From: an uncultured Gammaproteobacteria bacterium
GTDB lineage: Bacteria; Pseudomonadota; Gammaproteobacteria; JACCXJ01
Direction of reading: 5' to 3'
Assembly (NCBI GenBank): GCA_963764725.1
Contig: CAVXTM010000016.1
Coordinates: 224,001 to 288,000 of the forward strand
DNA: 64,000 bases
Shown: positions 59,623 through 62,159 of the stretch, piece by piece
Position numbering within the stretch: position 1 is the stretch's first letter
How the letters are laid out: each line of letters starts with the position of its first letter
Position numbers and translations under genes: made by a program
The notes under the pieces: model-generated
What the model was told of the DNA's origin: nothing
The model's database searches: none
The model's input: the letters and a program-made list of their open reading frames with translations, nothing else

Positions 59623-60369
59623 ATGAGTACCGTGAACGAACTCTGGCCGAAGGCTGTCGAGGACGGGTTGATCCCGACCGACAACGCGATGGGCATCATG
59701 ACCGAGGAACCCTCACCCGCGGCCCAGGCGTTCATCGAACTGGCGGCCAGCGCCGGCCGGCCGCTGCTGGAGATCGGTGCGGCCTACGGCAACGCCACAC
59801 TGCCCGCGCTGCGCGCCGGTGGCACGGTGATCGCGAACGACCTTTCGGCCTCGGAACTCGGCGTGTTGGCATCGACCGCGCCAAATGAGGATCGCAAGCG
59901 GCTCGTGCTGATGCCGGCGCGGTTTCCCGATCAAATTCGCCTCGGCGACGGCAGCTTGAGTGGAATGCTTGCCGCGCAAGTACTGCATTTCTTCGATGGA
60001 CCGACGGTCGACCTGGCCTTCCACAGCGCCCTTCGCTGGCTCGAGCCGGGCGGGGCCTTGTACGTGGTCGTGATGACACCCAGCCTGAGCTTCTACAGCC
60101 AGTTCCGGCCGGAGTATGAGAAGCGAGCCCGCCGTGGCGAACGCTGGCCGGGAATTTTCGATCCTCGCACCGTCGCCACGCCGGATTGGAAGGAGAGACT
60201 CCCGCCGATGGTGCATCTCTTTGAGAAAGAGGTGCTGCGGCGTTGCGCGGAGGAGGCCGGCTTCACCGTGGAGACCTTGAAATACTTCTGCTTCCGCCAT
60301 TTTCCAGCGAAGCACCGCACCGACGGTCACGAGTTCCTTACGCTCACCGCTCGGAAACCTGTTGCTTAG
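59623..60369 (+). CDS. Class I SAM-dependent methyltransferase
   Basis: LLEIGAAYG, VIANDLS, QVLHFF and WLEPGG. Confidence 0.85.
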   Translation: MSTVNELWPKAVEDGLIPTDNAMGIMTEEPSPAAQAFIELAASAGRPLLEIGAAYGNATLPALRAGGTVIANDLSASELGVLASTAPNEDRKRLVLMPARFPDQIRLGDGSLSGMLAAQVLHFFDGPTVDLAFHSALRWLEPGGALYVVVMTPSLSFYSQFRPEYEKRARRGERWPGIFDPRTVATPDWKERLPPMVHLFEKEVLRRCAEEAGFTVETLKYFCFRHFPAKHRTDGHEFLTLTARKPVA

Positions 60370-61998
60370 CTTCTACAAACTCTTGTGCAAAAAAGCAAAG
60401 AGTGTATGCGGGGCCACGACCTGAGAAGGCATACAACGTACTCCGGATAGCGAGTGCGGTGATGAGCACACGACGACCGAAGGTAGTGAGGTAGTACTTG
60501 TAGCGATGTCCAATCTTTTTGATGAGGCCATGGGTGCGCAAGCGTTTCAACCAGTAGGAGGCACGGCCGGTGGAGAGATCCCGGAGATGGGCTCGGAGAT
60601 CGGAAGCGCGAAAGCCGCTGATGTTCCACTCCCCGCGGGCGAGGGTGATAAAAAGGCTATGATCTTCACGGAGGAAGAGATTGAAGCCCCGATAGGAGCG
60701 GTCGTTCTCTCGTATGGGTTTAGCCATTTTGTCGATGGCGTGCAGAGCTGCATTGGGGTTATCGATGCTGGCCATGAAGCTGAGATAGCGTTCAGTGGCA
60801 GCATGCACCAGCTCTCGCAGATCGGGGAGGCATAGATGTTTTTTCGCAGGGGTGCGAGTTCGAATTGCTTGCGCCCATTGCGTTGTTCCACGAAGCGGTG
60901 GTGTTTGAAGAAGGAGACATCGTTGGCGGTGCATTCCACCCGAGCCATGAGACTGAATTTATCGTAGAGCTTGAGGCTCGCTGGCCCCATATGGTGGCGG
61001 ATGCGTGTACCCTGAATGCGGGTGTGAAAATCGTTACCGGCCTCCCCGCTGAAGGCCGAGGTGAGTTTGCGTCCCAAGAAGGTGGCGACGTGTTCTGCCT
61101 TGAGGGCATGCACGGCGGTACGCACGATGGCTTGATAGAGGGGTTGGAAATCGGCTTGGCGGTGGAAGATGACATCGGTCGAGAACTCCACCTGCATGAA
61201 GCTCCAGTGGTAAGCACTGTGAAAGTGACCCACGATGGGGCAGAAGTGCTTGGCCCATTTATCCAGACGACGATGCAAGCCTTTGGGATCGAGGCTATCG
61301 GCAAGCGACTGAGCACGGCGGGGATCGCCGATGGACAAGAAGGCATTATCGGCGCGCTCAAAGGCGATCCCTGCCTTTGCCAGTCGGTGGGCCAACCAGT
61401 GATGGCCGTTCAAGTAGACTTGCAGGCGAAACGGCGCCCAGGTGGGTACTCGGACATAACAGAGCCCGAAGATCTCATCGATGAAATAGAAGTAATAATG
61501 CAAACACTTGCCCGGGGTAGACTTCAAACGGGTCGTATGCTGAAGCTTGTCATGCCAGGGGCGATACGAAGGACAGGCCTCCATCGCCGAGAAGATATGC
61601 ACCAGCCCCGGGTGCTCACCGCGCAAAGCCAAAATCGCTTTGATCCGTTCTTCTTTGCGAAACGCCTTGTAATGGCGGATGAACTCGATTTCCAAACAAG
61701 CCTCAGCGGCCAGCCCCTCGGCATGGGTCCGAAGCGCCTCGCGCAGCGGTTCCGCCCAGCGGGGGTAGTCAAACAGACGCATACCCCGGACACCCAAATA
61801 CCGGGCCATGGCCTCGGCATGGGCGATCTCCGGAAGCGTGCCAGTGATCACGATGCGGTCAAAGCAACAAAGCACCGCGGCGATCTTCTCTTGATGGCGT
61901 TCGACAAAGGGATTCATGGTGACAACTCATCTCAATCTTTATTGCCCATCCGCCAGAATAGTACATTTAACACTTTGGTTCCGGCTCTGCCGGGTTAG
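60370..61998 (-). mobile_element. IS-like element encoding a roughly 500-aa putative transposase/Rep-like protein with a C-terminal wHTH (frameshift near 60835)
   Basis: ORF 60547..61917 (FDRIVITG, CLHYYFYF, LKLYDK...RVECT.ND) continues in ORF 60344..60934 (RSYRGFN, GFRASDLR, LKRLRTHGLIKKIGHRYKYYLT); TTAG at both boundaries; subterminal hairpin ccggc-tct-gccgg. Confidence 0.7.
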
Positions 61999-62159
61999 GT
62001 TCTACAAACGCTTGCCGCGCAGGCCACGCCTAAGCCAGCTCCGAGGCGCTACCGGGTCGCCGTCCTGCGCTTTGACCCCTAGGTCCTGTTTGCAACCGAC
62101 GCGCGTGGGAGTAGAGTGACGGTATCTGCTCAAGAACAACAACGGAGCCCGCCGCTGCC

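Follow-up and report, generated by a model that had tools for sequence, protein, structure and literature searches.

The window examined here, a 64,000-nucleotide stretch of contig CAVXTM010000016.1 from an uncultured gammaproteobacterium (assembly GCA_963764725.1, positions 224,001 to 288,000), contains near its right-hand end an element bounded by a 20-mer direct repeat at 60366-60385 and 61995-62014. Judged from its sequence, this is a dead, aberrantly inserted copy of an insertion sequence (IS) of about 1.65 kb with a single gene; we consider it dead because the normal 16 terminal nucleotides are missing and frameshifts are present. The account that we regard as probable, taken as a whole, is that the 505-aa protein of this IS is a transposase of the Rep_trans type and that a failed joint at the far end of the window copy made the repeat. 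With somewhat less assurance, while still favouring the idea, we propose that these elements represent a new class of prokaryotic transposon, in which a tyrosine nuclease of the Rep_trans superfamily with the fold of TATA-binding protein (TBP) is joined to a winged helix-turn-helix domain (wHTH), a bacterial counterpart of the archaeal Rep-Arvir initiators.

The left 20-mer, TTAGCTTCTACAAACTCTTG, and the right 20-mer, TTAGGTTCTACAAACGCTTG, are identical at 18 of 20 positions and form the first direct repeat (D1) in a repeat search of the window, which found no terminal inverted repeat of the element. With up to three mismatches allowed, the 20-mer occurs at only two places in the 64 kb, compared with a mean of 0.00 in 100 shuffles of the window, so that it is not a chance match. 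The first-pass annotation of this DNA, made from the letters alone, had the coordinates and letters of this repeat exactly right, as it did the hairpin at 61981-61993 beside one TTAG and the lack of terminal inverted repeats, and its description of the region as a mobile IS-like element is borne out by the copies described below. While its observations were confirmed, its interpretation is supported only in part, and its proposal that the element chooses targets that mimic its own end is not supported.

A DNA search of the window's own genome, followed by blastn with one copy as reference, returned 17 matches to the element, 8 of them full length. The full-length, uninterrupted copies are C1, C5, C9, C10, C13, C15, C16 (the window copy) and C18; two other copies are split by inserts of 1154 bp and 1379 bp, one is ended by a contig edge, and the remaining pieces are one truncated copy, two diverged fragments and a fragment of 125 nt from an end. 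We regard the element as a true IS, about 1.65 kb long, multi-copy and with sharp ends. In window orientation, and with a slash marking the junction, all 11 left ends other than that of the window read flank/TTAG-TCCCTTATCCATGAAA-TCTTGTGCAAAAAAGC, which may also be given as TTAG-TCCCTTATCCATGAAA-TCTTGTGC or, with N as the flank base, N/TTAGTCCCTTATCC. Right ends, the window's included, read ...GGTTCCGGCTATGCCGGG-TTAG-G/flank, or GCCGGGTTAGG/N, in 10 of 11 cases, and the far-end sequence of the element is GTAAGGGACTAA. Contigs of other samples break at the same two ends and run on into differing flanks. Intact copies carry one open reading frame (ORF), of 505 aa in the C10 copy and 520 aa in copies of the C18 type.

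The origin of the repeat is indicated by a genome of the same genus (G403), which matches the left flank of the window element at 97% identity and then runs uninterrupted through a site without the element. This empty site (L095, about 2167-2186) reads ...cctgttgt-TTAG-T-TTCTACAAAC-GCTTG-ccgcgcaggcc... and, in the region corresponding to the aberrant junction, AAACGCTTGCC; it contains the 20-mer once, and beyond it G403 continues as the right flank of the window element. On this comparison the right-hand 20-mer is the native target, which is why the repeat is not left over from a tandem copy. With a single 20-mer in G403, the left copy is duplicated target standing in place of the element's true end: positions 60366-60380 are a second copy of 15 nt of target, TTAGsTTCTACAAAC. 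The left target copy, TTAGCTTCTACAAAC (60366..60380), matches the right target copy, TTAGGTTCTACAAAC (61995..62009), at 14 of 15 positions, and the TTAGG of the latter is the reverse complement of the CCTAA insertion site. The left 20-mer had been taken for the element's own end; only its TCTTG (60381..60385), the first element-derived bases at the aberrant junction, where all copies read AAATCTTGTGC, belongs to the element.

Alignment to the other copies places the IS body at 60381..61994 on the minus strand, with the hairpin end (gene 5') intact and the gene-3' end short of the 16 terminal nucleotides TCCCTTATCCATGAAA. The hairpin or palindrome, CCGGC-nnn-GCCGG (here ccggc-tct-gccgg, 61981..61993, minus strand), lies directly inside the junction, is followed by AACCAAA in gene orientation, and is joined at the canonical TTAG/G. 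At the left end the window reads TTAG-CTTCTACAAAC-TCTTGTGC, the 16 terminal nucleotides being replaced by 11 others in this copy alone. The far end is thus short by 16 nt plus the tetranucleotide. Its joint with the target comes 15 nt 'too early' and lies at a microhomology of 4 nt, CTTG, common to the element's TCTTG and the target's GCTTG (62010-62014). The base after TTAG is C, G or T across the two repeat copies and G403. Compared with the 99%-identical C10 copy, the window copy shows no differences over 60862-61986 and 22 over 60381-60861, of which 14 are packed into 60405-60443 near the aberrant junction; five are 1-nt deletions. This gradient of differences, which steepens towards the aberrant junction, looks like the footprint of low-fidelity synthesis.

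We suggest that the enzyme made a precise joint at the hairpin end of the window copy, and that the far end was lost 20 nt short of its terminus (16 element nucleotides and the terminal tetranucleotide). The failed joint would then have been sealed 15 nt upstream in the target through the CTTG microhomology, with error-prone synthesis, and the outcome, a 15-nt duplication plus four shared nucleotides, would be the apparent 18/20 repeat. Such a copy is in keeping with a process that starts at a defined point and can fail at its finish.

The rules of normal insertion can be read from the other copies and from a set of 80 loci from other bacteria, in which the gene was placed on the plus strand. 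In gene orientation a normal element reads flank-C-C-Y-A-A / CCCGGC-nnn-GCCGG-AACCAAA ... gene ... GTAAGRnA-CTA-A / flank. Insertion occurs at 5'-CCYAA-3' (TTAGG on the window strand), a site that is single in empty sites. The 5' junction in 45 distinct sequences is flank-C-C-Y-A-A-CC(C/T)GG(C/A)-nnn-GCC(G/A)G-AACCAAA, with invariance at the C that precedes CYAA, at the two A's and over most of the hairpin, and the 3' end is conserved over about 30 nt (...GTAAGRnA-CTA-A/flank). In the 45 ends, 98.2% of the cells of the 5-bp stem are paired, with a compensatory change from C-G to T-A in 2 sequences and a one-sided change in two; such strong conservation of the stem leaves little covariation, and a palindromic site bound as double-stranded DNA is just as possible. 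At the C5 locus the empty site reads ...GGACAT-TTAG-GTATAGGGGG... in G403 and TTCGG at the same place in a further genome (G405); in the occupied site, TTAG stands on either side of the element. At the C10 copy the left flank is itself a repeat, an uninterrupted paralogue of which reads GCGCTG-TTAG-GTGG (GCGCTGTTAGGTGG).

The two tetranucleotides that flank the element do not always agree. The 5' junction is CCAA in 6 of 44 distinct loci, in which the far end is CTAA in four and CTAC in two; loci L017 and L022 are 99.1% identical over 3 kb, yet one has CCAA and the other CTAA; and the fourth base of the 3' end differs among near-identical copies in three genomes. Because the junction tetranucleotides disagree even in near-identical copies, the data suggest that the target supplies the 5' tetranucleotide and the element the 3' CTA(A), and the flanking tetranucleotides are probably not a classical duplication. 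When the 3' end was joined to the 5' end and folded, no structure common to lineages was seen in a set of five lineages other than that of the window, where the run ended at the fifth. No Rfam family was found inside the element, and a promoter and terminator scan of it gave nothing above chance. An RNA-library run contains parts of the element, which does not show transcription.

The gene of the element encodes, we infer, its transposase. An ORF of about 505 aa is the only long one kept in low-GC relatives and across lineages; the long antisense ORFs in the window's own genome are GC artefacts. Searches of Pfam, NCBIfam (which holds the NCBI models of IS families) and PHROGs gave no match to a transposase or catalytic family: the first ~390 residues are without any match, and the C-terminus has weak wHTH matches only. 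As the first-pass annotation had stated, the protein lacks a DDE, DEDD, serine or HUH signature, as the Pfam and NCBIfam searches and a scan of 65 diverse members of the family bear out. A single-sequence search of the PDB returned nothing, and a profile search returned a best E of 0.015, which is not significant, the top two being wHTH proteins and the others unrelated.

AlphaFold2, run with the 65-sequence alignment, gave a confident model (pLDDT 92.3 over the full length and 94.4 over residues 1-390), in which the N-terminal part is predicted to consist of two repeats of strand-helix-four strands-helix, a two-lobed TBP-like arrangement, and the C-terminal ~110 residues form a winged helix. 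Against the PDB, Foldseek placed the Rep_trans initiator of pSTK1 first (4cij, E 7e-5, probability 1.0), followed by RepDE (4cwe/4cwc) and TBPs, with low TM-scores of 0.2-0.34; against the viral library BFVD it returned TBPs of giant viruses and Rep proteins of Inoviridae, including A0A345MNV4. A homodimer prediction for the catalytic domain scored 0.00, which speaks neither for nor against dimerisation.

Fourteen columns are invariant in the 65 members, among them D20, R21, E113, Y142, Y144, E244, Y318, R326 and E328, and Q242, D248, K316 and K320 are conserved in at least 90%; all of these residues lie on predicted beta-strands, Y318 and K320 on strand 313-320. The KLYDK...RVE signature that had been picked out by eye is present, with Y318 at 60964-60966 and E328 at 60934-60936, and its flagged Y, R and E are all invariant. 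Motifs like those of pT181 RepC stand in the same order in the element protein: D46 (SFDAMTIVG) would correspond to D20 (CFDRIVITG), D142 (TRLDLAFD) to E244 (MQVEFSTD), Y191 (IRIYNK) to Y318 (LKLYDK) and E214 (WRVEIE) to E328 (ARVECT). As outlined in PMC5714925, the motifs of Rep_trans are N' (D), I (RxD), II, III (YxKxxE) and IV (W/LxRxE), with the tyrosine in a beta-sheet and a D-D-E metal site; the corresponding residues listed in PMC13107129 are Y191, D46, D142 and E214 of RepDE and Y283, E25, D207 and E303 of the archaeal RepSNJ2. The earlier guess of a Rep_trans relationship therefore stands as regards fold and motifs and falls as regards sequence-profile membership (PF02486 and hhalign, below); on the predicted model, kinship with Rep_trans is partly supported, at the level of fold and motifs and not at that of the sequence profile.

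The family is large and widespread. In one search 7,756 of 8,000 scored candidates reached E <= 0.001, nearly all of 505 aa, and a library of clusters at 50% identity yielded 7,656 representatives at E <= 0.001, 736 of them at E <= 1e-30. Database names are 'MarR family transcriptional regulator', 'ArsR family transcriptional regulator' or 'hypothetical protein', and the ESM Atlas contains 'hypothetical protein' clusters only. The 80 loci, all bacterial, come from Gammaproteobacteria, Deltaproteobacteria, Nitrospirota, Acidobacteriota, Planctomycetota, Gemmatimonadota, Chloroflexota and others. Distribution is patchy: the element was found in 12 of 400 sampled genomes of the window's class (two unpublished genomes counted). 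A named public copy lies on plasmid pOLGA1 of Paraburkholderia phytofirmans OLGA172 (NZ_CP014580.1, 252808-254322), where the gene is preceded by a CCTAA-hairpin-AACCAAACAGG end and followed by ...GCGACTAA. In the 29 loci with a recognised motif, the 5' non-coding end usually has 74-106 nt (one has 141 nt). Since seven copies in one Nitrospirota genome show 100% identity, the family is, to judge by these copies, active now; that genome has both orientations within 100 kb.

Based on these observations, we propose the following model for transposition. The N-terminal two-lobed TBP-like domain would be a tyrosine nuclease of the Rep_trans type, in which Y318 would act as the nucleophile and D20, E244 and E328 would hold the metal. 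The protein would bind the hairpin end, plausibly through its C-terminal MarR-like wHTH, a role in end binding that has been proposed for the wHTH of Rep-Arvir (PMC13107129). One strand would be nicked next to the hairpin at CCYA(A), with Y318 becoming linked to the 5' phosphate, and the element strand would be peeled off, displaced or copied, up to the CTA(A) terminus. Finally, a second cleavage and rejoining would release the element or insert it at a different CCYAA site, with no true duplication of the target. The overall route would resemble that of IS91 or IS200/IS605, which use HUH enzymes. The origin region of pT181 contains CCGGC-TACTCTAATA-GCCGG, with the same 5-bp stem as the element hairpin, which may be coincidence; in pT181 the nick falls in the loop of the origin hairpin. 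The pT181 cycle, as summarised in PMC5703833, proceeds by cruciform extrusion, nicking, recruitment of a helicase and termination by a second strand transfer.

Several points weigh against this account. With the Pfam model of Rep_trans (PF02486) there were no matches in the window's own genome, while a Bacillus subtilis control was positive, and hmmscan found no PF02486 match in the ORFs of the window or in the 65 members; the model matches in 4 of 400 genomes of the window's class. An hhalign comparison of the family with a Rep_trans alignment gave a probability of 0.2-0.25% and an E of 0.24-0.26, whether the full protein or either lobe was compared, the Rep_trans template being a shallow profile of 10 sequences (relatives of RepC and two proteobacterial Rep_trans). 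Among the 65 members, matches are to wHTH families only (HVO_A0261_N in 30, HTH_45 in 12, MarR in 4), together with a single weak TBP-TOTE, and the residue equivalences to RepC come from motif order and predicted strands, with no coordinate superposition. As regards the DNA, an obvious hairpin is present at one end only; six Nitrospirota copies all end in CTAAT; and the occupied C5 site is one T longer in a T-run than the empty sites, for which we have no explanation beyond polymorphism. No circle or tandem back-joint, nor any product of excision, was seen in assembled contigs of other samples, which cannot exclude one. The gene-sense strand lies on the G-rich strand in 10 of 13 copies, as judged by the GC skew of the window's own genome; given that this bias is weak and that the Nitrospirota genome has both orientations within 100 kb, a strict single-strand preference for the lagging-strand template is not supported. 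The microhomology and error-prone repair account, in turn, is drawn from a single junction, and the two copies of the repeat differ at 2 positions.

The first-pass annotation had favoured another explanation of the repeat, namely that the element recombines its own end with a look-alike target, the 20-mers being the attL/attR-like junctions. The 18/20 repeat at the window copy is indeed real and far beyond chance, but the empty site of G403 already holds the 20-mer once, and the left copy replaces the true terminal 16 nt that are present in 11 of 11 other left ends. Moreover, the flank beside the hairpin, which on that explanation should always resemble the far end, matches it at 0-5 of 16 nt in 9 of 9 other copies of the same genome and at 1-9 of 16 in 24 of 24 copies from six other lineages, compared with 14 of 16 in the window, and we find target mimicry scarcely credible. 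That the protein is a MarR- or ArsR-type DNA-binding regulator, and that the repeat unit is moved by an unlinked enzyme, would agree with its database names and with the wHTH being the only part detectable by sequence. Given that the wHTH makes up only ~110 of 505 residues, that a conserved two-lobed domain, in which D, E, Y, R and E residues are invariant, accounts for the ~390 others, that in many phyla the gene is always accompanied by the same ends, and that the element has no second conserved ORF, we judge this very improbable.

Two further alternatives are, in our view, unlikely. The element could be an ordinary cut-and-paste or copy-paste IS with a 4-bp TTAG duplication, as in the IS5 group, whose 505-aa transposase has an unspecified chemistry and resembles Rep_trans only superficially. 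Every normal copy is flanked by TTAG on either side and empty sites have it a single time, there is no sequence-profile link to Rep_trans, and in fold searches TBPs score as high as Rep_trans. Against this are the lack of terminal inverted repeats, the asymmetry of the ends (one hairpin) and of the target TTAGG, the 6 of 44 junctions with CCAA facing CTAA or CTAC together with the disagreement between near-identical copies, and the fit of the invariant residues to the Rep_trans motif set; nor was there any match to an RNase H-like or DDE family or fold, or to that of another known IS transposase, Foldseek placing Rep_trans first. Marginally less likely still is an integrating mini-replicon, in which an excised circle replicates by rolling circle with the protein as its Rep, in the manner of pT181 or Rep-Arvir, and the chromosomal copies are its integrated state and did not arise by transposition proper. 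The Rep_trans-like fold and motifs combined with a wHTH, as in the replication initiator RepSNJ2, and the CCGGC/GCCGG stem shared with the pT181 origin region are what such a replicon would have. However, the element has 1.65 kb, one gene and no recognisable second-strand origin, genomes carry 7-11 chromosomal copies at unrelated CCYAA sites, and the contigs examined contain no circular junction, although contigs cannot exclude one. The 1.6-2 kb contigs on which the family is mostly found are typical of genomic repeats, although free circles would assemble to the same length. Our preferred reading remains a transposon moved by a Rep_trans-type transposase, of which the window holds a failed insertion.

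In the window copy itself, codons 1-362 of the transposase pseudogene occupy 60832..61917 on the minus strand and would encode the two-lobed TBP-like or Rep_trans-like domain; of its other invariant residues, D20 is at 61858-61860, E244 at 61186-61188 and R326 at 60940-60942. After codon Y362 (60832-60834) a 1-nt deletion (60831..60832, minus strand) shifts the frame, so that the window reads GCC where intact copies have AGC (Ser363). The remaining gene, in the shifted frame (60344..60831, minus strand), includes, at about residues 395-505, the MarR-like winged helix. Near 60443 a further deletion of 1 nt alters the last ~12 codons, and the frame leaves the element to stop at 60344. The overlapping minus-strand ORFs 61917->60547 and 60934->60344 are thus one gene with a frame break. 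A programmed -1 frameshift at the A-AAA-AAC upstream of the break was considered and rejected, because intact copies read straight through and the window lacks one base. The insertion is intergenic, between ORF 59623-60369, which is methyltransferase-like and has its TAG stop inside the target TTAG, and an ORF from 62160 that starts like a B12-binding/radical-SAM protein, both names being read from translations only.

The copies also record encounters with other repeats. The gene of the most numerous subtype carries in frame a 45-nt REP-like hairpin repeat (AAGCCAGGGCCAGGG..GGCCCTG...), which in the window's own genome lies at C18:213174-213221 (L004, about 2311-2357) and in eight other copies, and which places 15 extra aa precisely between E244 and D248, both invariant. 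The repeat occurs solo at at least 14 other loci (e.g. C1:2656, C10:672 and C15:171900), and the insert is missing from some metagenome contigs. The nine insert-bearing copies are 99-100% identical and seem to have spread recently; this subtype may be mobilised in trans by the 505-aa form. Two copies, C11:178520-179675 and C18:265102-266482, are themselves interrupted: the 1154-bp insert sits inside the 45-nt REP-like repeat and may be a REP-targeting element, and at the 1379-bp insert reference positions overlap by 8 nt, which may be a target duplication. The intact 505-aa copy at C10:266719-268363 (L002) has a non-canonical hairpin-end junction, GCCGGGT + TCATAGTTAGG, and its flanks come from two different families of repeats: one flank is the tail of an IS4-like transposase, the opposite one a repeat end TCATA(A/G)GTTAGGTACTTAAGCC, which suggests a rearrangement or deletion made by the element. 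Flank searches gave no strong match for the C9 copy and, for the C18 copy, strong ones in unpublished genomes only, which were set aside.

Other features lie at or beyond the element ends. Beside the C18 copy (L004 3167-3242, minus strand) there is a sub-threshold Rfam match to RF00029, group II intron domain V/VI (30.4 bits against a gathering threshold of 40, E 0.007), which begins at the last base of the element and crosses the junction TTAG into the flank. In several metagenome-assembled genomes of Gammaproteobacteria (L017, L022, L031 and L036, and also L024 and L033) the element ends in CTAC and is followed by a common hairpin, GCTTTTTCCGAG...CTCGGAAAAAG; in one of these genomes at least 1.4 kb of shared sequence follows the hairpin, and the element may be part of a larger composite unit. 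Three 100%-identical copies on chromosome OY762711 (L056-L058) lie inside a slightly larger repeat whose outer ends resemble inverted repeats of ~17 nt (TACTCAAAsTGACCGAT), and seem to be nested in another element. The Nitrospirota genome G410 has solo fragments of ~75-82 nt that consist of the hairpin end only, at 79-83% identity (C2:750465-750546 and 634059-634134).

The window feature is a pseudogene copy, and the interest lies in the family. If our reading is true, transposition has also drawn on the second kind of rolling-circle nuclease, unrelated in structure to the HUH kind, which would add an enzyme superfamily to the DDE, DEDD, HUH, serine recombinase, tyrosine recombinase and Cas1 types of transposase and would link bacterial Rep_trans with archaeal Rep-Arvir. 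Thousands of genes across many bacterial phyla that are now listed as MarR or ArsR regulators or as hypothetical would then encode transposases. In practical terms, the family breaks assemblies, as its many matches on 1.6-2 kb contigs indicate, and is misnamed by annotation pipelines. Furthermore, a small single-protein element with a 5-nt site and a defined hairpin end may be of interest as a tool for DNA insertion. In the literature we found no description of an IS with a Rep_trans-like or TBP-fold transposase; ISfinder was outside this scope, and an unnoticed ISNCY entry is conceivable.

Among known IS, those of the IS200/IS605 family use an HUH transposase of the Y1 type, have no terminal inverted repeats and carry subterminal hairpins at both ends, and they insert at a short specific target without true duplication. 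The present element shares with them the lack of terminal inverted repeats, the tetra- or pentanucleotide target and a subterminal hairpin. However, its hairpin is at one end, it shows no clear strand or orientation bias, and its enzyme has an unrelated fold without HUH, no Y1_Tnp or HUH match or fold being found by Pfam, NCBIfam or Foldseek. IS91/ISCR and the Helitrons are rolling-circle transposons with HUH enzymes of the Y2 type, distinct 'start' and 'stop' ends and a short target tetranucleotide, and they leave aberrant copies when one end fails. Distinct ends, a short target and aberrant one-end copies are likewise features of the present element, which is about the same size. In contrast, it has no helicase, and its enzyme belongs to another superfamily: there was no Pfam or NCBIfam match to the Y2 transposase family, the predicted fold is TBP-like, and no obvious nucleophile is present other than the invariant Tyr318 in the Rep_trans-like position (on the first lobe, Y142 and Y144 do not vary either). 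Membership of IS200/IS605 or IS91 therefore fails, because there is no HUH enzyme. IS110/IS1111, which have a DEDD (RuvC-like) transposase and a guide RNA in a long non-coding end, differ in that the element has no DEDD or Transposase_20 match, no Rfam family and a short 5' non-coding end, and DDE elements with a 4-bp duplication, such as the IS5 group, differ in that it has no inverted termini and no DDE family or fold, and has discordant CCAA/CTAA junctions.

The closest likenesses are to replication proteins. With Rep_trans (PF02486; pT181 RepC/RepD, RepSTK1 4CIJ/4CWC/4CWE and the MOBT relaxases) the element protein shares the two-lobed TBP-like sheet, the [IL][RK][IL]Y[ND]K followed by RVE and, in the same order, the FDxhxIxG and xx[DE]xxxD acidic motifs, and the element shares a GC-rich hairpin next to the presumed nick site. 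It differs in the large lobe insertions of its domain (about 390 residues compared with about 200), in a spacing of 10 residues from Y to E instead of 23, in the C-terminal wHTH fusion and in the lack of significant sequence or profile similarity. Its gene also sits in a 1.65-kb multi-copy chromosomal element and not in a plasmid, phage or integrative and conjugative element (ICE), whereas Rep_trans enzymes are known, according to PMC5714925 and PMC13107129, from plasmids, filamentous phages and conjugative elements. Rep-Arvir (DUF7845, PF25227), represented by RepSNJ2 of the haloarchaeal virus SNJ2 and described in April 2026, likewise combines a TBP-fold nuclease with a MarR-like wHTH. As portrayed in PMC13107129, it was found by structure only, is often misannotated as a regulator and shows the same Foldseek pattern (giant-virus TBPs and Inoviridae Rep), all as in the element family, and is exclusive to archaea, where it is carried by viruses, plasmids and ICEs. 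The element family, by contrast, is bacterial and spread over many phyla, is the sole gene of an IS, lacks the extra C-terminal domain and has KLYDK where Rep-Arvir has KHYYM as its tyrosine motif; PF25227 did not match the first member and was not among the families listed (25/55) for the 65 members. The Rep-type transposases named so far in 10.1101/2022.12.15.520654, namely IS200/IS605, IS91/ISCR, Helitrons and Replitrons, are HUH enzymes only. We file the present element beside them, as a putative Rep-type transposon with a different nuclease superfamily.

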